Below the pieces are notes generated by a model that was given only the letters and a program-made list of their open reading frames with translations, was not told the origin of the DNA and searched no databases. Made by a program: the position numbers and the translations under genes. Shown one piece after another: positions 24,570 to 60,729 of a stretch of DNA of 64,000 nt (position 1 is its first letter; each line of letters starts with the position of its first letter). This stretch comes from Pseudobdellovibrionaceae bacterium (GTDB taxonomy: Bacteria; Bdellovibrionota; Bdellovibrionia; Bdellovibrionales; JAMPXM01), in the NCBI GenBank assembly GCA_947462815.1, contig CANHQR010000014.1, positions 800 through 64,799 of the forward strand, given 5' to 3'.

Positions 24570-25661
24570 TCAAGGCTCAACTTCGCCGCACTTTGCGATG
24601 GGGCGCAAGCTCTCGGCGCGAAGGTTCTGATGATCCTGAACAGGCATAGAGGTGGCACTCGCCGGGCACTTATTGGCAGCGAGCGCTTGTTGAATCGCCG
24701 CCGCTTCTTCGGCAGGGTACTCAAGTCCCCAGACGGCTTTGACCTTCATCCAAATATGCAAATACTTGCAGGTGAACCTGGTATCCGGTGGCAAATAACG
24801 CTCAGGTCCGGCATCGCCCTTGGACATGTTCTCGTGTCCGCTGACGGAGAGGAGGTGCGTGGGGTCATCCATGAAGTTCGCGTAGCGGCAACGGCGATTC
24901 TGGTTCCACGCATGAGCGCCTGAAAGGTAAGCGGCCTTTAAGGGAACGATGTGATCAACTTGAATCGCATTGGCGAGTTTAAACTGAGCACCCGAGAACG
25001 GGTCGATCCACTTTGCTTTGTAGACCATGCACTTGTTTCGAGAAGTGAATTGCACGGATTCATTGGGATCAGCATCGCGAAGCAAGACTTCAGCGCGTGT
25101 ATTGTAGCAGTCAGCAGGGCTATCCTCGTTAATCCATCCACCAAACAATTCAACGCGATCATACTTAGGGAGCGCGCTGAGCAGATCCTCTCGGCTTCGC
25201 GGCGAAGTGTTTTGCTGCATATACTGGAGCAAGTCGAACAGGCCCTGAGTAGCTCGCAGACCCGTTTCGATCCACGCGTCCAACCAATCGAGGGGAGTGA
25301 AGAAAGCCGCGGTCGGTGGCGAGACAGCTGCTTCGCGGCTCACCTCATTGAGCGAGGAGGTCGTCCGATGGAACTCATGAGCTGATTCTTCAATTGTTGA
25401 ATAAGACCATGCGTCCTGCGCATAAACCGAAGGACTTGCCAGGAGCAGTCCGAAGATGGCGACCAGAGGCCCGCTCTGGCGTCCGATCTGGCGGAAAACC
25501 TCAAAGCATTTCGCCACTTGTGATCGACTGATTTTTCGCAATCCGTGCGGAGTCGTCATGTTTGCGAGGGCCTTTTTGATGAAGTCGTTGAGGGGCTTCT
25601 TGAAAAACCAGTTCCGTTTCGGAACCAAGCCCACTCTCCCTAAGCGCCGGGCGAACTGCAA
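24570..25661 (-). CDS. secreted HNH/His-Me finger nuclease (DUF1524-like C-terminal domain)
   Basis: The signal-like segment is PLVAIFGLLLASPSVYA. The C-terminal QVDHIVPLKAAYLSGAHAW...NFMDDPTHLLSVSGHENMSKGD matches the DUF1524/GmrSD-C nuclease motif. The start is uncertain (25661 or 25559). Confidence 0.6.
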   Translation of the reverse strand: MQFARRLGRVGLVPKRNWFFKKPLNDFIKKALANMTTPHGLRKISRSQVAKCFEVFRQIGRQSGPLVAIFGLLLASPSVYAQDAWSYSTIEESAHEFHRTTSSLNEVSREAAVSPPTAAFFTPLDWLDAWIETGLRATQGLFDLLQYMQQNTSPRSREDLLSALPKYDRVELFGGWINEDSPADCYNTRAEVLLRDADPNESVQFTSRNKCMVYKAKWIDPFSGAQFKLANAIQVDHIVPLKAAYLSGAHAWNQNRRCRYANFMDDPTHLLSVSGHENMSKGDAGPERYLPPDTRFTCKYLHIWMKVKAVWGLEYPAEEAAAIQQALAANKCPASATSMPVQDHQNLRAESLRPIAKCGEVEP

Positions 25662-37617: not shown

Positions 37618-38442
37618 GTGACCCGACAATACGGCTTTCATATTGGTGCACGAAATTCCGCAGGATCTTTCCTTCTACGAGGCTTGGGTCGAAGCCTGCG
37701 TCTCCTTTTAGGCGGGACTTTGTTTATCGCGAGCTTCCTCGGTGAAGTGCAGCTGGTTCAGGCTCAGTCCTTGATCCCGAATTTCACAGCCAAAATCTCA
37801 TCCTTAAAAAAGCGCGACCAGATGCTCTTCAGCATGAAGAATGAATACAGCATATCGGGCGATGAGAAAGTGTACGTGAGTACGTATTTGAGTCCCGAAG
37901 GGCACGAGCTCGTTCGCGAAACTTCGACGTTTCAGCTGAAGGAAGGCCGAGAAATCTTAAAAAAGTTTCGTGTTGAGCAGTTGCAGCTCAAAACGGACGG
38001 ACACGTTGAGATTAAAGACGGCAAAGCTCACTTCCATCTGCTCAAAGATGGCAAAACTCAATCGGCCGAAGAAAAAGTCGGTGAGGACTTTATTGTGTCC
38101 TCAACTTTGATTGCCCATCTGCGCCAGCCCAAGAATTGGGAAAACCTCTTAAAAGGCGAGCGCGTCCGTGTGCGATTTGCAGTCATTGATCGTCGAGAAA
38201 CTGTGGGCTTTGAGTTCTTCAAGGTGAAAGACATTGAAGTTCAGGGTCGCAAGGCCATTGCCGTGAAAATGAAGCCTTCGAGCCTGCTCATTTCGGCCAT
38301 TGTTGACCCGCTCTATTTCTATATCGATCTTGAGAATGGGTTGTTGCTGGAGATGGAAGGCCGGAGCGCGGTCAAGACGGGTGAGGTCGGTCAGTGGAAG
38401 GACTTTGACGGCTATACGGTTTACACGCACACGGCAAAGTGA
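37618..38442 (+). CDS. hypothetical exported protein
   Basis: GTG 37618 has GGAGGA 7 nt upstream. The TM/signal segment is LRLLLGGTLFIASFLGEVQLVQA. It is Lys/Glu-rich, has lower GC than its neighbours by eye, and shows no motif. Confidence 0.45.
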   Translation: MTRQYGFHIGARNSAGSFLLRGLGRSLRLLLGGTLFIASFLGEVQLVQAQSLIPNFTAKISSLKKRDQMLFSMKNEYSISGDEKVYVSTYLSPEGHELVRETSTFQLKEGREILKKFRVEQLQLKTDGHVEIKDGKAHFHLLKDGKTQSAEEKVGEDFIVSSTLIAHLRQPKNWENLLKGERVRVRFAVIDRRETVGFEFFKVKDIEVQGRKAIAVKMKPSSLLISAIVDPLYFYIDLENGLLLEMEGRSAVKTGEVGQWKDFDGYTVYTHTAK

Positions 38443-39107
38443 CGACCGCTGGCATCGCTCAGAGAAAGCGGGGCTTTCCATCGCCCCGCGAGGCGCAGGG
38501 CGAGTTCTCCAGGAGACTCGCAATCTGCAGCGAGGACTTCGATCGCGGCATCCGCCACTTGTTCGTAAGACGCATTGGTTTCAATTTCGAGCGTGAGCTC
38601 GCGAGGTGAGGCCTCGGGGGCGAGTTGGACGTCGTAAATCCCTCGCTCAATGCGCTTTGCGTCCCAGGGCCGTAGACCAATCTCCACGCTTAAATCTGAC
38701 ATTTCATCAAGTCGCAAGAAGTGGGCATCTTGACCGTAAGCCTGGCGAAAAGCTTGCGCGAGGAAGGACGCGATGTTCTCCGTTGTCGGGATCCGGTCGC
38801 GAAAAGCCGGCGCATCAAGGGGTAGATGCTTGTAGTTGAGAAGAGCTGCGACTTGCTGGACCGCTGACTGAAACTTTGACCAGTCGGAGTCTTGCTGGGC
38901 ATTCACCCAGATTTCGATGCGGTAGTTGTGACCGTGGCCATGTCGAGCTGTGAAACATGGGCCGAAGGCTTTCTCGTTCTGCTCATCGGTCCACTCCGTT
39001 CTATGGTAGTGGTGGGCGGCGGTGAACTCGCGTGAGAGACCCCAGTAAAGTTTGAATTCAGGGGAAAGGCTTTCGTCTTGGACACTAGACAAGATGAATT
39101 CCTCCAT
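38421..39107 (-). CDS. 6-pyruvoyl-tetrahydropterin synthase / QueD-family protein with about 90-aa C-terminal extension
   Basis: The motifs are FTAAHHYH...PCFTARHGHGHNYRIEIWV...LNYKHLPLDAPAF...PTTENIASFL. The start is ambiguous (39107 or 39161), and both overlap the upstream SDR gene end. Confidence 0.7.
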   Translation of the reverse strand: MEEFILSSVQDESLSPEFKLYWGLSREFTAAHHYHRTEWTDEQNEKAFGPCFTARHGHGHNYRIEIWVNAQQDSDWSKFQSAVQQVAALLNYKHLPLDAPAFRDRIPTTENIASFLAQAFRQAYGQDAHFLRLDEMSDLSVEIGLRPWDAKRIERGIYDVQLAPEASPRELTLEIETNASYEQVADAAIEVLAADCESPGELALRLAGRWKAPLSLSDASGRHFAVCV

Positions 39108-39861
39108 CGATGTTGAGCATCGCACCCGTCGTCCACTCTGAGCCTGAAGCGCAGAGGGCATAGGCGAGACTTGTCAGGTCTTCGGGGCGCCCCACGCGTC
39201 CTAAGGGCTGCAAATGACGCAGTTGTTCCAGCGTTTTCTCTTTGTCAGCAGCCTCGTGAAAACTATGAATAGGAGTATCGACGAGCCCGGGGCAGATGGT
39301 ATTGACGCGCACGCCATCGCGGGCGGCTTGCACCGCAAAGGCTTGCGCCCAGTTGTTGAGAGCGGCTTTAGAAGCCGAGTAGGCCACTGTGTCCGCCGTG
39401 CCTTTGAGTCCCAGTGTCGACGAAATATTGAGAATGGCGCCTCGGCTCTGTCGCAGCAAAGGATAAAAGGCGCGTGTGAGGCGAAGCGGACCGAGAACAT
39501 TCACTTCATAGAGGCGAGTCCAGTCCGCCAGATCTGCAGACAGAGTTTCGCCACGAACAAACTGACCCGCGTTATTGATCAGGGCATCGAGACTCTTGAG
39601 GTTGGTTTGATGAATCCAAGCCTCCGCTTTCGCTTGCGCGTCCTGAGTGCTCAAGTCGAGGGGACACATCATAATCGCACGTGAAGGGGCCTGATCTCGG
39701 CAGAGAGCCTCGGTCGCCTGCAAGGCGGAGGGCCGCCGGCCGATCAGCACCACCTGCCAGTTCTGTTTCGCAAAGTGCACGGCGAGGGCCTGGCCAATTC
39801 CTGAACCCGCCCCTGATATGGCCACTGTCTGGTGTGAAGTTGTGGTCTTTGCAGCCTGCAT
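39085..39861 (-). CDS. SDR-family oxidoreductase
   Basis: The NAD(P) motif is VAISGAGSGIGQALA. NNAG, the Y-x3-K motif (YSASKAALN) and PGLVDTP are also present. Confidence 0.85.
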   Translation of the reverse strand: MQAAKTTTSHQTVAISGAGSGIGQALAVHFAKQNWQVVLIGRRPSALQATEALCRDQAPSRAIMMCPLDLSTQDAQAKAEAWIHQTNLKSLDALINNAGQFVRGETLSADLADWTRLYEVNVLGPLRLTRAFYPLLRQSRGAILNISSTLGLKGTADTVAYSASKAALNNWAQAFAVQAARDGVRVNTICPGLVDTPIHSFHEAADKEKTLEQLRHLQPLGRVGRPEDLTSLAYALCASGSEWTTGAMLNIDGGIHLV

Positions 39862-39962
39862 GTTTGGTGCTCCGATCGGGAGCGGGAGGCCCCTGAAGGT
39901 GAATCTGCTCAAGGCGCGGATCGTGACGGTGAAGTGAATGAAAGGGATTGAGTCGGGAAGAG

Positions 39963-39983
39963 AATCGGGCGCTTGGCGCCCGA
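39963..39983 (-). terminator. hairpin terminator downstream of the histone-fold gene
   Basis: A perfect 9-bp stem (ATCGGGCGC, loop TTG, GCGCCCGAT) starts 16 nt after the stop. On the minus strand it is followed by TCTCTTCC. Confidence 0.6.
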
Positions 39984-39998
39984 TCTTTCAGACTTCAA

Positions 39999-40202
39999 TT
40001 AGAAGTCGTAGCCACGGACCGTCTTGCGACCGTTGTCCTTGCAACGACCCACAGCGGCCTTGATCATCTCGTGAATCTTGCCGCTCAGTGCGTCGACAAC
40101 ATCCGAAGAGACGTTGCAGCCCTGGCTGCGAATGGCGTCTTTCATCTTCGATGCGATCACCAAAACTTCACCTTTTTTTCCGCCTTTGGACTTCTTGGCC
40201 AT
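39999..40202 (-). CDS. bacterial histone-fold DNA-binding protein with Lys-rich N-terminal tail
   Basis: ATG 40202 has AAGGAG 6 nt upstream. The 67-aa product is MAKKSKGGKKGEVLVIASKMKDAIRSQGCNVSSDVVDALSGKIHEMIKAAVGRCKDNGRKTVRGYDF. It has alpha1-L1-long alpha2-L2(GRKTV)-alpha3 spacing like archaeal HMf-type histones. Confidence 0.7.
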   Translation of the reverse strand: MAKKSKGGKKGEVLVIASKMKDAIRSQGCNVSSDVVDALSGKIHEMIKAAVGRCKDNGRKTVRGYDF

Positions 40203-40332
40203 AAACAACTCCTTTTCGAGATCAAACTCGTTGGGGAGATTTCAAAAGGAGGACCGACGCAAGTCAATAGCTGAGTTCGGGACATGCCCGAGGTGGCCCA
40301 CGGCTCGGAAAGTCGGAACTTCGGAATCAGGC

Positions 40333-42045
40333 TCAAGCCGCCTGTTGTCCCTTCATGCCCAGTGCGACGCGCCAGACTTCGGCATCGCGGAAGATTTTGA
40401 TCAGATCCAGATCGAGTTTTCCCGCGCGACCTTCCATGTGCAGAATTTCAAGCGCTCGCTCGGGAGAAATCGCGGGCTTGTAGGGGCGATCCATGGATGT
40501 CAGCGCATCGTAGATGTCGGCGATTGTCATCAGTTTGGATTGAAGGGGAATGTAGTCACTGAGCAGACCGCGCGGGTAACCGCTTCCGTCCATCTTTTCG
40601 TGATGAGAGTAGGCGATGTCGGGAACCCCACCCAAGTCCTCCGTCCAAGCGATTTGTCGGAGGAAGTGATAGGTGTGAGTGACATGTGACTCGATCTCCT
40701 TGCGTTCGGTATCGGTGAGGGAGCCCTTCGGCATTGAGAGCTTGACGATCTCCTCGGGCGTGAGCATCGCATGATCGATCTCTTGCGAAATCTGATTGAT
40801 CCAAGTCATCAAGCCAATAATGTCAAAATCTCCGGCAACGACTTGCGGCGTATTAGCTTTGATGATGCTGACTCGAACTTGTTGGAGTCGTTTGGCGAAG
40901 TCGTCGATCCGATTCATGACTTTGTCGATATACTGCCGTGGAGAATCGGCCAGGCTTCGGCCCTTTTCGAGTGTTTCGAGGAGCTCGCTGGTGGCATGTT
41001 TCCATGTCAGCATTTCTTGCTTCGCGCTGGCGGCTTCCAGACGGCTCATGATGGTGTCGATTTCGTGAGGATACAGCTTCAGCTGCTTGGAGAGCACAGA
41101 TTCGCGAACGCCGATCTTTCCGAAGTCATGCAAAAGAGCGGCGTAACGAAGTTCGCGCATCTGGGCGTCGTTGAACTCGACATCTTTATAAATGCCATCG
41201 CCGCACAGGTGCACGGCGCGGGCGAATTCGACAGTGTAGACCGCCACGCGATCTGAGTGACCAGAGGTGGAGGGGTCTCGCGATTCGATGGCGGTCACTG
41301 AAGCGCGGATGAAACTTTCAAAGAGATTTTCGATGTCATTGTTGAGCTTCGCGTTTTCGATTGCCACCGACGCTTGTGACGCGAAGGCTTGCATTAAGTC
41401 GACATCTTCTTCAGAGAAAGGCTCGACATCGTCGGTCGTCAGTGCGCGGTGGTGATCGAGGTCACCCGGGCTTCCGGGCTTGAGTTTGTTGATGATTTGC
41501 AGAACGCCGCGGACCTTGGAATTGGCACTGGTCATCGGTACAGCCAACATCGAAACCGTTCGATATCCTGTTTCATGATCGATCTGCGGATTGAATTTGT
41601 AGTCGAGGTTCTCCGGCATGTTGTAGCAATCGTCGATACGAAGGGGTTTGCCTTCAATCGCGACCCAGCCGGCGATGGAGCTTTTGTCGAGTTCCAAAAT
41701 CTTGTTTTGATAGGTCATGCCCGTCCGTCGATTGGTCGATCGGTGGAACCTGAGCACGGTAATGTATTTAGCCTGTTTGTTGGCGATCGAGTCGATCTTG
41801 ATGTTTTCAGTTAAGAAAATAGAAGCGGCATCGGCCTGTGTCGCATCGAGAGCTCGATCGATAATCAAATCCAAAATTCGCGAAATATCTTTCTCGGCAG
41901 TCAGGGCGACACCGGTTTCAACCAGTGAGCGATATCGGTTCATGGAGCGGCGATCGTGGAAGTGAGAATCCGACGAGGCCTTCGAGCGCGGGCGCGCTTT
42001 TTTCTTTCCGTTCCCGCGCGATGCTCCGTGACCTGACATGCCCAT
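40333..42045 (-). CDS. GAF domain / HD-GYP domain c-di-GMP phosphodiesterase-type protein
   Basis: The HD-GYP motifs are AALLHDFGKIG and HHEKMDGSGYPRGL. The N-terminal GAF-like region is DAASIFL...GWVAIEGKPLRIDD. The start is uncertain (42045 or the internal MNRYRSL). Confidence 0.85.
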   Translation of the reverse strand: MGMSGHGASRGNGKKKARPRSKASSDSHFHDRRSMNRYRSLVETGVALTAEKDISRILDLIIDRALDATQADAASIFLTENIKIDSIANKQAKYITVLRFHRSTNRRTGMTYQNKILELDKSSIAGWVAIEGKPLRIDDCYNMPENLDYKFNPQIDHETGYRTVSMLAVPMTSANSKVRGVLQIINKLKPGSPGDLDHHRALTTDDVEPFSEEDVDLMQAFASQASVAIENAKLNNDIENLFESFIRASVTAIESRDPSTSGHSDRVAVYTVEFARAVHLCGDGIYKDVEFNDAQMRELRYAALLHDFGKIGVRESVLSKQLKLYPHEIDTIMSRLEAASAKQEMLTWKHATSELLETLEKGRSLADSPRQYIDKVMNRIDDFAKRLQQVRVSIIKANTPQVVAGDFDIIGLMTWINQISQEIDHAMLTPEEIVKLSMPKGSLTDTERKEIESHVTHTYHFLRQIAWTEDLGGVPDIAYSHHEKMDGSGYPRGLLSDYIPLQSKLMTIADIYDALTSMDRPYKPAISPERALEILHMEGRAGKLDLDLIKIFRDAEVWRVALGMKGQQAA

Positions 42046-45726: not shown

Positions 45727-46848
45727 TTAGCGAAGAGCAATAGGATCATAAGTGACGCGAATCTGAGCGCCTGCGGGCGGCACGGCCGTTCCATGGAAGG
45801 TCACGGAGTTTGTGTTGGCGTTGTAAGAGTACCCGTTGTTGGCATCTTCAATGATCTCCACGTTATTGACGAAGATCCGTAGTGTGGCCGGAGCCGGCGC
45901 ACGATTTAAGTAGAACTGCGTAGAAAGTTCGATGATTTTATTGGAGATCGAAGCGAGGGTTGTTCCGAAGTTGTCACATAAACTTCCGAGGCGACCATTT
46001 GTGAGTTCCGTTAGAGCGCGATATCGATTGGCCACCGGGCGACCGCCGAGCGCGTTCCCGCAGGTCGAGTCGATCACGGCAATGCTGCTCACGTTGTAAC
46101 GTCGATTCTGGGCTGTCGAGCCTGTTTTCCCATCGAGGTAAGTAACATAAGACTCGGGAGTGTGAAGCCGGGGGTCATTCGTCGTGTACCCAATCGCCGC
46201 TGACCCATCCCAAGAGCTATCATCTTCATCCGAAACTACAATGATGGCGAGGAAGGCATCCCTGCGCGGAAAACCGCCGTTGAACGGGTTGTTGAGTGCG
46301 CTTCGAATACTTTGAAACGCACGTTCGTCGCCTGACCCATTGATCCCTTGTTTGGCATTCATCACGAAGACATTCTGTTTGTCGGGCGTTGCAGGCGTGA
46401 TGATTTTGTATCCCGAATCGCTTGTTCCGGGAACACCGGAGCGGAACTCACTCAAGTTGGTCGAATTGAATTCGTCTTTGTAGCCGTCCGTCACGGTGAC
46501 GGCGATTTGGTAGTCAAAACCATTTGCATCGAAACGATTGATGAAGCTTTGAAAGTTGTCGACCAGAGCCTGCTGGCTTGTGGCCATCGAACCCGAATTG
46601 TCGATGACCCAAAGGACGTCGATTTTGCCGTTCACTTCCGCAGCACTCTGACTGAAGGTCGCATCTTCGGCGAGCAAGTCGAAACTTGCGCTCTTGCTAC
46701 CACAGGCCATGAGCAGGGAAGTGAGGCCCACCAGGCTCATGCTCAAGAGTGACTTCGATTTCGATCGGGTCATTTGCACGTTGGACTGGACAGAGTGCAT
46801 CGTGCAAGCTGTGCGAGTCTTGAACTGAGGGAGCTTCGCGGTTCTCAT
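45727..46848 (-). CDS. vWA-domain lipoprotein
   Basis: ATG 46848 has AAGGAGG 7 nt upstream. The lipobox is LTSLLMACGS. The MIDAS-type motif is IDVLWVIDNSGSMATSQ. Confidence 0.65.
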   Translation of the reverse strand: MRTAKLPQFKTRTACTMHSVQSNVQMTRSKSKSLLSMSLVGLTSLLMACGSKSASFDLLAEDATFSQSAAEVNGKIDVLWVIDNSGSMATSQQALVDNFQSFINRFDANGFDYQIAVTVTDGYKDEFNSTNLSEFRSGVPGTSDSGYKIITPATPDKQNVFVMNAKQGINGSGDERAFQSIRSALNNPFNGGFPRRDAFLAIIVVSDEDDSSWDGSAAIGYTTNDPRLHTPESYVTYLDGKTGSTAQNRRYNVSSIAVIDSTCGNALGGRPVANRYRALTELTNGRLGSLCDNFGTTLASISNKIIELSTQFYLNRAPAPATLRIFVNNVEIIEDANNGYSYNANTNSVTFHGTAVPPAGAQIRVTYDPIALR

Positions 46849-46862
46849 AACAGGTCCTCCTT

Positions 46863-46887
46863 GTCGAACTGCGGGGTCGAACTGCGG
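46863..46887. repeat. direct repeat GTCGAACTGCGG x2 (1-nt spacer) abutting the vWA gene RBS
   Basis: Read directly from the sequence. On the coding strand it is CCGCAGTTCGAC C CCGCAGTTCGAC AAGGAGG. Confidence 0.85.
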
Positions 46888-47192
46888 TCTGAGACGCCGA
46901 TCGAGCGACGATCTCAAGACCTTCATCGGGTTCGCAAAGGGTTGCGGTGAGATAAAAATGTGAAGCAAAACTCATGTTTCAAATTGAGAAATCGTCTTTA
47001 ACATACTGAAATTCAATGCGAATTTCTTGCTTGGATCTTCGTAGGGCGTCATCGAGTTCGACACTTCATTCGACATTGATCGACAGGATTTGAGATTTGA
47101 ATTTAACAGGCGGCCCTAAGGTGGCGAAGTCTTTGACAGGCCGTGGAGTGGGCTCGACTTGTGGTTCAGTTGGAAACATCCGAACAGACCAC

Positions 47193-52056: not shown

Positions 52057-52356
52057 TTACCAGGAGGCGTTGGATAGGTGCCGACGAAGTTGATCCTCTG
52101 GAATATCGACGAAGATTTCAAGGGCCTGTCGATGGCTTCGCATGAGGCGCAGGATTTCATGAATGAAGGACGACTCGTCGAGTTCAGCTGAGTCTTTTAT
52201 GAAATTCTCAACTGAGTGATGGGCGAGCGGACCATCGACAAGAAAGCTGACACCCGACTCACGGAGTTTAGTTTTGTAAATCCAAGCGCCCCCGCCGATC
52301 ACGGCGGCAGTTCCCAGGGCATAAGTCAAAAGATCGCGAAGGCTGATTTGCGACAC
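52057..52356 (-). CDS. hypothetical small membrane-anchored protein
   Basis: This is a 99-aa ORF with one N-terminal TM segment (LLTYALGTAAVIGGGAWIY) and no recognised motif. Confidence 0.35.
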   Translation of the reverse strand: MSQISLRDLLTYALGTAAVIGGGAWIYKTKLRESGVSFLVDGPLAHHSVENFIKDSAELDESSFIHEILRLMRSHRQALEIFVDIPEDQLRRHLSNASW

Positions 52357-52632
52357 AACTCAGATTGCAATGCATTGGTTCCAGAAGCGCAAGCCGCGGG
52401 TGATGGGGGTGCATGGAAAAACCTTCGCGAATCGGAAAGAAGGGCCCAACACGATGAGATGCCGGTGACCAAGGATTTCAAGGCAACCCTGAAGTTCGCG
52501 CCAATTTATGGGAACTTCGCTAGGTCCTCCCGAAGCGACGCGAAGGCGCATAAGGATTCCGGGGATTCCCCCATTGAATCTTTGTTCGCTGTAGGTCGTT
52601 TGCTCAACATGACCCCATCGAGGAGCCCAAGA

Positions 52633-53919
52633 ATGTTTCACTTTTTAACGAGCGCTCGAATCCCAAGAACCAAGATGCGCTCTTCCCGACCGGCCGTTAG
52701 AGATCGAGCGAAAGCCCTCTTGACCCTCATCGCCATGTGTTTTGCTGAGACGAGCCAGGCGGCCGTCTGGGATGCCACTGAACAGTGGAGTTCCGCTTGG
52801 GAGACAAGATTTCAACAGTGGGTGGAGTCAGACTGGAACAAGGACATCTTCGTCGGTCCTGGCCCCTTGCAGGGCGTGAAGCTGGATTGTGCCGACGCCG
52901 TGTACATGATGCGAATGTACTTCTCCTACCTCCATAAGCTGCCCTTTGCCATGAAGGACTCCACAAGTTCACGAGGTCAACTGGTGACGCAGTCGATGAC
53001 TCGTTGGGATCACTTACCTGAGGCCCAACGAGTTCGACAGTTTGCATTTTTAATTTTCAATATTGGCAGCACGGCTTCGCTGCCTCAAGACACCTATCCC
53101 GTAGCGGTCAACCGGCAAGCCTTGGCGTCGGGAAGCTTGCTCTTAACGGATCGAAGCAGTCACCATTCGTGGACGATCAAGTACTTCTCGAACACCGGAA
53201 TCCCATTCCTCGTCTTCGCTTCTCGTCCGGCTCGTACTCTGATGTACGAGCGATTCGAGTACCCGACCTTTGGCTTTACCTTCCCCAATGGCCTACGTCC
53301 TGAGACCAACGCAGGCTTCCGAGCCTTCCGACAGCCGAGTGACATTCTTAAACCTGTGCATCAGGTTCCGGGATTTTCACTCGAGCAATACTCAATCGCA
53401 CCAGCGACTTGGGCTCGAACGCTCCAGCGGCGCATGCAGACGACTCAAGAAACGGCCGAGCAAAAAGTGACGCGTATTTATAATGAAGCTTGTCGAGCTG
53501 CGCGCGAGCGAGTGGAGGCCGTGCGCGATGGCGTGGCCTACAATGCGAGAATTGGTTCTCGCTGCATGAACTCCACGGAGTATGATGATTATTCGACGCC
53601 CAGCCGTGATAAGCGATTGCAAGGGACTTTTGACGATCTGATGCAGGCATTTCAAGAGGCCGGTGCGGCTCAACCAGGTTCAGGCCTCAGCCAGAGGCTT
53701 CGCGATCAGTTCGCTCTCATGCAGAATTCGCTTCAACCCAATCTAGGAACCGATGCCTGCCCAGTCGAAATTCGCCCCGGACAAAGCCTGACTTTGGGTC
53801 AAGTCTACCGATCCAGTGTCGCTCAGCGCTTGAGCAATAACCCTCACGATACCTTGGAAATGCGTTGGGGAATACAAGCAGGCCCTTCAGCAAAAGCGGC
53901 GAATTGTCCGGTGTATTAA
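52633..53919 (+). CDS. hypothetical secreted protein (possible papain-like/NlpC-P60-type hydrolase)
   Basis: ATG 52633 has AGGAG 7 nt upstream. The signal peptide is ...AKALLTLIAMCFAETSQA. The candidate Cys motif is VKLDCADAVYMMRMYF and the downstream His segment is GSLLLTDRSSHHSWTIKY. Confidence 0.45.
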   Translation: MFHFLTSARIPRTKMRSSRPAVRDRAKALLTLIAMCFAETSQAAVWDATEQWSSAWETRFQQWVESDWNKDIFVGPGPLQGVKLDCADAVYMMRMYFSYLHKLPFAMKDSTSSRGQLVTQSMTRWDHLPEAQRVRQFAFLIFNIGSTASLPQDTYPVAVNRQALASGSLLLTDRSSHHSWTIKYFSNTGIPFLVFASRPARTLMYERFEYPTFGFTFPNGLRPETNAGFRAFRQPSDILKPVHQVPGFSLEQYSIAPATWARTLQRRMQTTQETAEQKVTRIYNEACRAARERVEAVRDGVAYNARIGSRCMNSTEYDDYSTPSRDKRLQGTFDDLMQAFQEAGAAQPGSGLSQRLRDQFALMQNSLQPNLGTDACPVEIRPGQSLTLGQVYRSSVAQRLSNNPHDTLEMRWGIQAGPSAKAANCPVY

Positions 53920-57403: not shown

Positions 57404-58666
57404 ATGAGCTGGGGTTTTCTTAAAGTGTTGGCATTTGTTTTATGGATTTTGATTTTGCCTGCGCAACTCGTCTTGGCACAGAGTGAAGACTCGAGCTCTC
57501 ACCAACCTAGCCAACTGACACAAGGTCGACAAAATCCAATCCAAAGTAGACTTCCTTCGACTTCTCATCTGGCGACAAATTCTTCGCCTACAGATGCTTC
57601 GATGTTTCCTAGGTTGAATCCTCCGCATGCGAATTCGCATTTTGGTTTGTTGCCGCAAGCCCATGGGCACGGAGGTGAACGACTCAGCCAACCTCATCGG
57701 CGCTCTATCGCCACGACGGAATCCATAAGGGGGCAAGAACAAGCTTCCTGCTTCGGCCCCTTCCCGCCTTCCCTCCCTGGACGTCTGGAGTCGTATCGAG
57801 GTGTATCGGCGATTTGCGAAGGAGCTGATCATGTTCGACGAATTGCGCTGCGAAGTTTAGAGACGCAAGGACGGCGGTATCTGCTCACTGTTCACCCGGT
57901 AACTTTGACGACTCAATTTGAGTTGGAAGCTTGTTTGCGGTGCCAATCGGCGATGCGGAACATGTGGCGCAATACTCCCTATGGACAGGCACTTGAAACT
58001 TCGCTGTCGGTCGGTGATCGACATCAGGGGCGATTAAATCTCGGTTTGACACGAAGTCTGGTTGCGGTACGCGGAAGTTTCTTAACAGCGGATCTTTGTC
58101 CCTCACGAGCACCTTTCGATCGAGAAGCTATTCAACGCATCATCAACGAGGCAGGTCAGCTGCCCATCAGAATGGGATTGGCTTACTCAGGCTTATGGTT
58201 GCAAAGACATCCAAATGAGTTCCGATGGCTTCGTCTGTTGGAGCTACAGGGACGCTTGCAAATCGAATGGATCAATCATTCCTATTCACATCCCTATCGC
58301 CGTGGCGTGGATCTTAGGGAAAACTTCTTACTCACTGAGGGTGTGGATCTTTATCGAGAAATCTTTCTTGCCGAGAAGCAGTTGATCGAAATGGGTGGAA
58401 GACCCTCGGTGTTTTTCCGTTTTCCAGGTTTGGTCGGCGATGCCCAACTTCTTCAGCGGATCGGGGACTACGGGTTGATCGCGTTGGGGAGCGAGGCTTG
58501 GCTTGCAAAAGGACAGCGACCACGTGACGGCAGTTTGATCTTATTGCATGCCAACGGGAACGAACCCGCGGGCTGGAGGGCCTTTGATCGACTCTGGCGA
58601 GCCCAAGCGATCCCGCTCCCCTTTCGAGACCTACGCGAGCTCGTTCACCCGTCACACAACGAATGA
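57404..58666 (+). CDS. polysaccharide deacetylase (NodB-homology)-like secreted protein
   Basis: The signal peptide is MSWGFLKVLAFVLWILILPAQLVLA. The NodB motifs are INHSYSHPY, FRFPGL and ILLHANG. Motif 1 is atypical (LTADL instead of TFDDG). Confidence 0.6.
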   Translation: MSWGFLKVLAFVLWILILPAQLVLAQSEDSSSHQPSQLTQGRQNPIQSRLPSTSHLATNSSPTDASMFPRLNPPHANSHFGLLPQAHGHGGERLSQPHRRSIATTESIRGQEQASCFGPFPPSLPGRLESYRGVSAICEGADHVRRIALRSLETQGRRYLLTVHPVTLTTQFELEACLRCQSAMRNMWRNTPYGQALETSLSVGDRHQGRLNLGLTRSLVAVRGSFLTADLCPSRAPFDREAIQRIINEAGQLPIRMGLAYSGLWLQRHPNEFRWLRLLELQGRLQIEWINHSYSHPYRRGVDLRENFLLTEGVDLYREIFLAEKQLIEMGGRPSVFFRFPGLVGDAQLLQRIGDYGLIALGSEAWLAKGQRPRDGSLILLHANGNEPAGWRAFDRLWRAQAIPLPFRDLRELVHPSHNE

Positions 58667-58761: not shown

Positions 58762-60729
58762 GTGCTGGTTTCCATCAACTATCTCAATTTGAGACAGTGG
58801 AGGGCCTGGGCCTTTTGGCGTTTCACGCGGGCCTGGCTCGTGTTCTGGCTTGTTTGCAGCTCATCACTCACTATGTTCGCCAACGCGAATCCCGTCGCTT
58901 CGGTCCCAGATCCCACGCTTCTCACCTACTCGGAGCTATCACGCCTCTCGCCGCAGCGTCAGGTTGAGTATATCGAGGGTGTTCGCTCACTACTCCTTGA
59001 GCTTTCGCAGATGAAAGATTCACGTCTCAGCGATTTAGGCACAGGCCAGGATCGCGAATCTCGAATCACTATGATGGCGCGCCTTGAGCAGTGGCTGAAA
59101 CAGGTCTCACGTTTTCCTGAGGCATATGCCAGCGAAAACTTGAACAGAGCCCTTCAAACGATCGAGAGATGTGTGCCGAGCTCCGGACCAGCACGAGTCG
59201 CTGAATTCGTGCCTCACGTCGGAAACTTTTCGTGCACTCTATCGATCGAGGTTCGGAGTGAAGAAGAGCGTCAAACCCTCCGTAATTTTCAAAGGAATCG
59301 AATCATCGACTACTATCGCAACATTGAGACTCTTCAGCGAGACGTGGTCGAGGGCCGACGAACAGAAGACGTCGTCGTCGATTACAGCACTCGCTTTGAA
59401 GGAAGCTTCTTTAGAACTCAGCGTCGGCTGACCAATCCAGGCACGGATCGAACAGCTCAAGCAAATGGCGATCTGACAGCTGAGGAAGGCCGAGCACGCG
59501 CTTGGCGACAGCTCGCCTTGGAGGCCGGAACTAGAGCGCAACCTGCTGCACAACCTACAACGGCGCTTGGCCTTCCCCCCGTATCTCTTGTAGCTCCGCG
59601 CGTGGCGGTTCCAGCTACAATGCCGCCTCCGCCACAACCTGCGCCAGCCTCGGCACCTCCGCCAATTGCTGCTGCAACTCTGCAGCCACCAGTCGCGGCA
59701 GTTTCAACTTCTCCGCCTCGAGAACCCGCACCCGTTGCTCCTCCTGCGCCGATTATCACGGCCCCTGTGCCACAGCCTGTGGTCGAGGTGGCGCCGATCC
59801 CTCCACCTGCTCGCCCTGCTTCTCTTGCAACTGCGACGATTGCTCAAGGGCCATCTGCTGTGACCGCTGTGCCCACCGACGTCAATCGACCACTCACCGA
59901 GGCCGAGCGTGCGCGACGCCAACGAGCTTGGCCAGAGGGCGTTTTTGGTCCGTTCTCAAGCATGGAAATTCAGCGCGGCGCTTGCGGAGAGAATGGTCGC
60001 TTGGCCCACCACGATGAGGCCAGTGGTGTTTGGTTTTGTTTGACGGAGGATGCGCAAAGAAAAGTGCAGACGGGAGAGATTGAGCTCCCTCAGCTTCGCT
60101 CGAGTCAATTACCTGTGGATCGCTGTGCGCCTGTGCCCATGGTTTGTGAACCCAAGGCGGAACTCCGACGGCAATTCTGGGGTACGCAGGGCGTGAAGTG
60201 CTTGATTGCCGGCGTGGTCAGTGAACTCGAACCTGTTCCAGGCCGACCAGACGATAAACGATGCCGTGTGCCCGGAGAATTCTCTGTCGGAGAAAGACGA
60301 TTCCGTTGTGGACCTCATCAGAGCATTTGCAATCCTCTCCTCTTCGGTTCTGTGAATGAACAGACCCCGGTCTGTATGGGACGCGGAAGCGATGTGACGG
60401 CTCGCTGTGCTCGAGTCTCTACAGCCCATGACGCTCATCGCTTCTTGAGTCGTCATACGCCGGGGATTCAAGAAACGTGGGACCAATTACGCAACGGACT
60501 TCGCGAAGTTTGTGCGCCGAGTTCCGTCTCGGGGCGCTTTCATTGTGAGGAGTGCAATCTCATTCGGCAGCGACTCTTTGAGTTGAATGCAAAAATTGTC
60601 GGTCGCGAGCGCGCTTGCGAAAATGCGGATCACCTTGATCGCATTCGCGAAAATTTACCGCTGAATGCGACAACTCGACAGGCGCCGCCGCGAAGTGCTC
60701 CGGCTCGAGCTCCACGCACGAGCCAATAA
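58762..60729 (+). CDS. hypothetical exported protein with Pro/Ala-rich linker and Cys-rich C-terminal domain
   Basis: It has a GTG start and a hydrophobic N-terminus. The central PPPQPAPASAPPPIAAATLQPPVAAVSTSPPREPAPVAPPAPIITAPVPQP is followed by a C-terminal region of about 250 aa with many Cys. Confidence 0.45.
   Translation: MLVSINYLNLRQWRAWAFWRFTRAWLVFWLVCSSSLTMFANANPVASVPDPTLLTYSELSRLSPQRQVEYIEGVRSLLLELSQMKDSRLSDLGTGQDRESRITMMARLEQWLKQVSRFPEAYASENLNRALQTIERCVPSSGPARVAEFVPHVGNFSCTLSIEVRSEEERQTLRNFQRNRIIDYYRNIETLQRDVVEGRRTEDVVVDYSTRFEGSFFRTQRRLTNPGTDRTAQANGDLTAEEGRARAWRQLALEAGTRAQPAAQPTTALGLPPVSLVAPRVAVPATMPPPPQPAPASAPPPIAAATLQPPVAAVSTSPPREPAPVAPPAPIITAPVPQPVVEVAPIPPPARPASLATATIAQGPSAVTAVPTDVNRPLTEAERARRQRAWPEGVFGPFSSMEIQRGACGENGRLAHHDEASGVWFCLTEDAQRKVQTGEIELPQLRSSQLPVDRCAPVPMVCEPKAELRRQFWGTQGVKCLIAGVVSELEPVPGRPDDKRCRVPGEFSVGERRFRCGPHQSICNPLLFGSVNEQTPVCMGRGSDVTARCARVSTAHDAHRFLSRHTPGIQETWDQLRNGLREVCAPSSVSGRFHCEECNLIRQRLFELNAKIVGRERACENADHLDRIRENLPLNATTRQAPPRSAPARAPRTSQ

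Follow-up and report, generated by a model that had tools for sequence, protein, structure and literature searches.

A gene of 67 codons and a TAA stop at positions 39999..40202 on the reverse strand of the 64-kb stretch of DNA analysed here (the window) raises two linked questions: which kind of bacterial histone it encodes, and what the lysine-rich segment ahead of its fold might do. It was only in 2023-2025 that bacterial histones came to be seen as major chromatin proteins, and standard annotation (Pfam, NCBIfam, PGAP) still overlooks such proteins. An earlier note, made from the sequence of the window, had described the product as a histone-fold protein with a eukaryote-like basic tail, implying a protein of the Bdellovibrio type (HBb) to which a tail had been added. 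[quoted passage not shown]

The 67-aa product of the gene, MAKKSKGGKKGEVLVIASKMKDAIRSQGCNVSSDVVDALSGKIHEMIKAAVGRCKDNGRKTVRGYDF, was also called by other gene callers on contigs from several other public metagenome samples. The translation agrees with the stand-alone unit described previously, with a Shine-Dalgarno sequence AAGGAG (40209..40214, reverse strand) separated by a 6-nt spacer from the ATG and with equivalents at orthologous loci. Further upstream on the same strand, a putative promoter (40239..40267) consists of a -35 box TTGACT (40262..40267), a 17-nt spacer and a -10-like box TGAAAT (40239..40244). A strict sigma-70 promoter scan of 39700..40500 returned no match, this element being missed because position 2 of its -10 box is G, and it was recognised only through the alignment of 15 orthologous upstream regions, nearly all of which present a TTGAC[A/T] box followed by a T[G/C]AAAT-like box. 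On the other side of the gene, 14 nt past the stop, lies a GC-rich hairpin (39964..39984, reverse strand) with a 9-bp stem and a 3-nt loop, AUCGGGCGC-CAA-GCGCCCGAU; the 57-nt segment that encloses it (39945..40001) folds with -24.7 kcal/mol (z = -5.6 against shuffled sequences). The hairpin itself, previously taken for the gene's own terminator, is therefore real, but the run that follows it is only UCUCUUCC, a weak U-tract, so that a strict intrinsic terminator scan of 39700..40500, which demands a T-run, gave no match; we consider it a probable terminator. Similar hairpins are found 3' of the histone gene in L001, L004, L011 and L014, though not at every locus. Taken together, the promoter-like element, the Shine-Dalgarno sequence and the hairpin suggest a monocistronic, strongly expressed gene.

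No second histone was found in the window, since hmmsearch with the family profile over every six-frame ORF recovered the 39999..40202 gene alone. Screening of the whole window with Rfam at gathering thresholds identified no family, and thus no riboswitch or other catalogued RNA, and several large ORFs had no Pfam match, e.g. 52216..53919, 57404..58666, 58762..60729 and 45727..46968. A GmrSD_C-like nuclease domain was observed at 24570..25661.

The order of the surrounding genes, SBP5 / HD-GYP-GAF / histone / SDR / PTPS / unknown / pseudouridine synthase, was retained in 12 species-level genomes labelled Bdellovibrionales, across which the identity of the histone drops to 59%. Conservation of gene order in spite of falling identity points to a core gene that has been inherited vertically. 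The MAGs that encode identical or near-identical proteins are labelled Pseudobdellovibrionaceae and Bdellovibrionales, and the value of the gene as a taxonomic clue, proposed in the earlier note, was thereby borne out. Immediately upstream of the histone, a 570-aa protein with GAF and HD-GYP (HD_5) domains is encoded at 40333..42045 on the reverse strand; this gene, whose product is 63-95% identical between species, adjoins the histone at every Bdellovibrionales-type locus with upstream sequence (L001-L015), and the two genes seem to have signals of their own. On the opposite side, the mechanical ORF list gives a PTPS-like ORF (38421..39161, reverse strand) and an SDR ORF (39085..39912, reverse strand) that overlap by 77 nt, the latter beginning at a TTG whose distance to the histone stop is just 87 nt. 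Contig L026, which is nearly identical, has a shorter SDR call (258 aa) that leaves 137 nt, hairpin included, between SDR and histone, and the true starts of both genes probably lie downstream of the longest-ORF starts. The HBb-family gene P0123, at the only HBb-type locus compared (L023), has TatA/TatC on one side and LiaF-like/LigA/GatCAB genes on the other. Positional orthology with HBb was consequently rejected, within the scope of that one locus, as the neighbourhoods differ.

Searches by sequence, profile and fold all lead to histones. With the window protein as query, phmmer against the PDB retrieved HLp (9QT0, E = 1.7e-8) and HBb of Bdellovibrio (8CMP, 1.5e-6), and a profile built from 52 homologues of 49-90% identity retrieved HLp at 7.6e-18 (67.5 bits), HBb at 8.4e-12 (48.2 bits) and archaeal HTkC at 6.8e-9 (38.8 bits), followed by Asgard and archaeal histones and NF-YB. 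An AlphaFold2 model computed from the alignment of homologues (mean pLDDT 81) reproduced the layout read earlier from the sequence, a helix, a loop, a longer helix, a GRKTV loop and a short helix, with helices at residues 17-25 and 35-56 and a helical turn at 64-66. Its best Foldseek match was 9qt0, i.e. HLp (TM 0.95, rmsd 0.9 A over 56 residues), ahead of HTkC (TM 0.86-0.88), HBb (0.79-0.84) and then eukaryotic and archaeal histones and NF-Y. Codons 12-67 (40002..40169, reverse strand) thus encode an alpha1-L1-alpha2-L2-alpha3 histone fold with a truncated alpha3, ending in GRKTVRGYDF, in which R59, T61 and D66 (RxTxxxxD, the RD clamp and the L2 threonine) are invariant in the 52 homologues. 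Curated models miss the window protein, which scores 17.1 bits with Pfam PF00808 (cut-off 21.4) and 13.8 bits with the NCBIfam archaea_histone model NF043032 (cut-off 50), hence its NCBI label 'hypothetical protein'. Since solved relatives match strongly, we regard these misses as a limit of model sensitivity; PF00808 is matched at E < 0.01 by 29/52 family members.

Which class of histone this fold represents depends on the contacts between dimers. FtF histones were defined as toroidal tetramers with conserved R48, N52, R54, T56 and D61, bacterial dimer histones being described as devoid of R48 and N52 (Schwab et al., Nat Commun 2024, PMC11390915). In HLp (PDB 9QT0/9QT1/9QT2; Hu et al., Nat Commun 2025, PMC12701072) the two dimers are linked through R49, S52 and N53 of one chain, which meet F63, T61 and R55 of the other. 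In the window protein R53, N57, R59, D66 and the C-terminal F67 align with R49, N53, R55, D62 and F63 of HLp, which make up its dimer-dimer hydrogen-bond network, while D56 and Y65 stand at the positions of S52 and T61. R53 and N57 are conserved in at least 90% of the 52 homologues, R59 and D66 in all of them, and HBb carries S and D where the window protein has R53 and N57. In HTkC, the variant of the equivalent arginine, R45A, is described as resembling dimeric HBb in bending DNA instead of wrapping it (discussion of a 2025 preprint, 10.64898/2025.12.06.692711). The C-terminus, ...YDF, is flush with the ...TDF of HLp and ends at the single-turn alpha3, whereas HBb-family proteins, 64 aa in length, have a longer one.

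The profile likewise favours HLp over HBb by 19 bits, and a neighbour-joining tree, for which only 55 columns were available, left all 26 HBb-family sequences outside the clade that unites the window protein with HLp and HTkC. The raw pairwise distance of the fold is much the same to either reference (0.617 to HLp, 0.606 to HBb), so the assignment hinges on the interface residues together with the profile scores and the 55-column split. On these grounds the window protein is best placed with the FtF/HLp type, and the implied reading as an HBb-type protein with an added tail gives way in view of the R..N signature, the HLp-like C-terminus and the different neighbourhood. Residue conservation and homology suggest that it would form tetramers. 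The idea that the window family is the closest FtF relative of HBb, or an evolutionary intermediate, found no support: its median identity to HBb-family sequences is 0.40, a value exceeded by many other FtF-signature representatives (0.42-0.49).

The segment that precedes the fold, MAKKSKGGKKG (codons 1-11, 40170..40202, reverse strand), carries five lysines among its 11 residues and a net charge of +5, and its residues 1-8 are predicted to be disordered (pLDDT < 50). In 52/52 homologues the protein opens with a tail of the MAKK type in which K, G, A and S abound, with lengths that differ by in-frame insertions and deletions; indels are frequent, the only conserved columns are M1, A2, K3 and K9, and MAKK is the best-conserved part. 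Translation from a later codon, the outcome that would have removed the tail from the protein, is not supported by the orthologs. A start codon and a Shine-Dalgarno sequence stand ahead of the MAKK-type tail in 20/22 GTDB species-level loci, the remaining two being one locus cut at a contig end and one tail-less doublet. At all 20 tailed singlet loci the start is ATG, or GTG in L017 and L022, with a GGAGG/AAGGAG-type site upstream. An AAGGTG-like site does precede an internal TTG (L14) and GTG (V15) in the window; a miscalled start there was rejected, as those codons are absent from many orthologous loci. The tail is thus translated and conserved as a feature, with 6-15 residues and a net charge of +3 to +6 in 21 sequences (the window protein and the 20 tailed loci). 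Its sequence and length drift freely beyond MAKK, which points to selection on charge and not on a recognisable modification motif. The likeness to eukaryotic tails drawn in the earlier note is accordingly confined to composition.

Nor is a basic tail of this kind new. Most bacterial FtF histones were reported to have positively charged tails without any conserved tail sequence, and FtF histones were listed in Spirochaetota, Planctomycetota, Bdellovibrionota and Myxococcota (Schwab et al., PMC11390915); the supplement of that study holds no further text on tails, and papers on Bacteriovorax chromatin do not discuss the tails of bacterial histones. Our own survey of 1.84 billion proteins with the family profile, which identified 1,813 cluster representatives at E <= 0.001, is in line with this. 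The best 150 of these included 99 singlets, 93 of them with the R..N signature, and among those 93 the tail charge is at least +3 in 65%, with a median tail length of 14 residues and a maximum of 42 residues (+19). A tail of 11 residues and +5 is average for such singlets. Proteins of the family, and the positive charge of their tails, were already on record in 2024-2025, so that the window gene is a further member.

The survey also disclosed architectures beyond that of the window protein. Natural doublets, with two FtF-like folds per chain of ~120-130 aa and usually no basic tail, made up 51 of the best 150 representatives, so that a covalent pseudodimer of the FtF-like fold is common in the family; an example is found at L020 5989..6375 in a Myxococcales MAG, the product of which is identical to P0194 and starts MSDTETLIVGNQ.... 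The singlet FtF-type proteins P0302, P0339, P0231, P0234, P0329 and P0288 bear H1-like Lys/Ala/Thr tails of 30-42 residues and up to +19. Acidic tails were observed in three of the six singlets that have no R..N signature (P0298, P0337 and P0338), those most similar to the HBb family. In P0323, P0254 and P0235, a hydrophobic, signal-peptide-like N-terminus is followed by Pfam RRM_1 (54, 36 and 27 bits, respectively; cut-off 20.7) and then by an FtF-signature histone fold (...KPKEIVVVGSKVKEVIREAGLRSDG...NGRSTVRPYDL), and signal-like N-terminal segments recur in the related P0225, P0193, P0205, P0221, P0213 and P0273. These proteins could be exported or RNA-associated histone-fold proteins; neither RRM-histone fusions nor signal peptides are mentioned in the main text of Schwab et al. 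(PMC11390915).

The reading that we consider probable, by analogy with HLp, is that of an FtF tetramer that wraps about 60 bp of DNA and whose flexible basic tails add non-specific DNA contacts. HLp forms stable tetramers and wraps ~60 bp non-specifically, its residues S14, K15, K17, K21 and R59 supplying 52% of the DNA-binding energy; the corresponding residues of the window protein, S18, K19, K21, R25 and R63, are invariant or nearly so. Two handshake dimers would meet at the end of alpha2, at loop L2 and at the C-terminal turn and so close into a tetramer, with R53, N57 and R59 set against the Y65-D66-F67 C-terminus of the opposite dimer. Some 60 bp of DNA would be wrapped around such a tetramer irrespective of sequence, and the DNA would be contacted by the start of alpha1 (S18, K19, K21, R25) and by the L1 and L2 loops (K60, T61, R63). 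The disordered 11-residue tail, +5 per chain and +20 per tetramer, directly precedes the 'paired ends of helices' contact of alpha1. In HLp, the N-terminal 6-7 residues are invisible in all three crystal forms and stand directly before the DNA-contacting A13-S14-K15, so that four +5 tails would emerge at the DNA-binding rim, where they would most likely add non-specific electrostatic contacts with the DNA backbone and thereby raise affinity or compaction. What the analyses establish is the fold, the family, the conserved residues, a tail that is translated and conserved, and a vertically inherited locus; tetramerisation, DNA wrapping, high abundance and the action of the tail are inferred.

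Other explanations can be weighed against this one. The protein might act as HBb does, bending or coating DNA in the form of a stable dimer, R53 and N57 being kept for another reason such as DNA contact. Its distance to HBb, no greater than that to HLp, would agree with such a role, as would the EVLV(I/V)xSK start and the GRKTV loop that it has in common with HBb, and the labels of the source MAGs, which fall in the NCBI class Bdellovibrionia, where Schwab et al. placed the dimer types. We nevertheless hold it to be unlikely, given that the equivalents of R48 and N52, missing from dimer histones, are retained in at least 90% of the family, and that the C-terminus, the profile score, the tree and, at the one HBb-type locus compared, the genomic context depart from HBb. 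A role as a specific regulator instead of a general nucleoid protein, for instance one tied to the HD-GYP/GAF signalling gene upstream, could draw on the constant adjacency of the two genes. This appears very improbable: the histone is preceded by a conserved promoter-like element of its own and, at several loci, followed by its own hairpin, every HLp residue that mediates non-specific backbone contact is conserved, and distant relatives in Myxococcota and Bacteriovoracaceae genomes occur outside the HD-GYP/GAF-SDR neighbourhood.

The tail in particular admits two further explanations. It might be mainly an expression device, whose lysine codons keep the initiation region A-rich and unstructured while the peptide itself has little role on DNA. 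The tail of the window gene is indeed AT-richer than the fold (GC 0.45 vs 0.55, with similar values at other loci), and MAKK is its most conserved part. Lysine codons, however, are used alike in both regions (AAA:AAG 75:31 in the tail, 83:35 in the fold; odds ratio 1.02, p = 1.0), and therefore no extra pressure for A-rich codons is apparent in the tail; the net charge is moreover held while sequence and length drift, and the 30-42-residue tails of relatives far exceed any effect on the initiation region. We thus give little credence to this explanation. About as little can be given to a regulatory platform on which reversible acetylation or another modification of lysines tunes DNA affinity, as in eukaryotic chromatin. 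The five lysines, lying flexible and exposed beside the DNA surface, would suit it, but the lack of positional conservation beyond MAKK and the frequent indels are unlike an enzyme-read motif, no conserved tail sequence was seen by Schwab et al. either (PMC11390915), and Pfam searches of the genes on either side and of 20 more large ORFs of the window detected no acetyltransferase, deacetylase or reader-like gene. A bolder proposal, which we rate as a long shot, is that a lineage labelled Bdellovibrionales uses, instead of or beside HBb, a tetrameric FtF histone that wraps DNA and whose short lysine tails are reversibly acetylated to tune the compaction of the nucleoid. If it were true, compaction might be tuned e.g. 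between stages of the predatory life cycle, the family series of tails from 0 to 42 residues would represent graded versions of one device, and bacteria would have evolved, on their own, an equivalent of chromatin regulation through histone tails.

The window gene leaves the current picture of bacterial histones unchanged and adds to it an FtF-type histone from a lineage labelled Bdellovibrionales, one that is well conserved, has been inherited vertically and bears a compact tail of +5. It bears on the distribution of FtF and dimer types within Bdellovibrionota. HLp is the only functionally characterised bacterial FtF histone (10.64898/2025.12.06.692711), and the visible part of its tail is non-basic; the window histone is a candidate for learning what such tails do on a wrapping bacterial histone.

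Among known systems, HLp is the closest by sequence, profile and fold, with 43% identity in the Foldseek alignment, the same fold length, the same ...DF end and a short disordered N-terminal extension in common. All of its tetramer residues named above (R49, N53, R55, D62, F63) and its DNA-contact residues (S14, K15, K17, K21, R59) are present in the window protein, K21 as R25. The two differ in the L2 loop, KRTTV in HLp and GRKTV in the window protein as in HBb and archaeal histones; at T61 of the HLp interface, which is Y65 here; and in the visible part of the HLp extension, AQNAEK, which is non-basic. The HLp gene reportedly lies beside SMC, methionine aminopeptidase and DUF350, and the window gene beside HD-GYP/GAF on one side and SDR/PTPS on the other. 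HBb (Bd0055 of B. bacteriovorus; PDB 8CMP, 8FVX), a 'bacterial dimer' histone from the same phylum, shares 40% identity, the truncated alpha3, the EVLVV..SK start of alpha1 and the GRKTV loop, but begins directly with MAEVLVV, as the earlier note had correctly stated, and has no tail.

With the catalogued FtF histones that have charged tails (PMC11390915) the window protein shares every sequence feature by which they were recognised. It departs from that catalogue in class: there, FtF histones of Bdellovibrionota were placed in Bacteriovoracia and dimer histones in Bdellovibrionia, whereas genomes of the window type are labelled Bdellovibrionales or Pseudobdellovibrionaceae, NCBI class Bdellovibrionia, the labels of these MAGs being coarse. 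The tails of eukaryotic core and Asgard histones are comparable in being disordered, rich in Lys and Gly and N-terminal to alpha1, and the KGGKKG of the window protein's tail is similar to the GKGGKG repeats of the H4 tail. Unlike those tails, that of the window protein is only 11 residues long and shows no positional conservation beyond MAKK, and the phyletic pattern points to its independent acquisition within the bacterial FtF histones.
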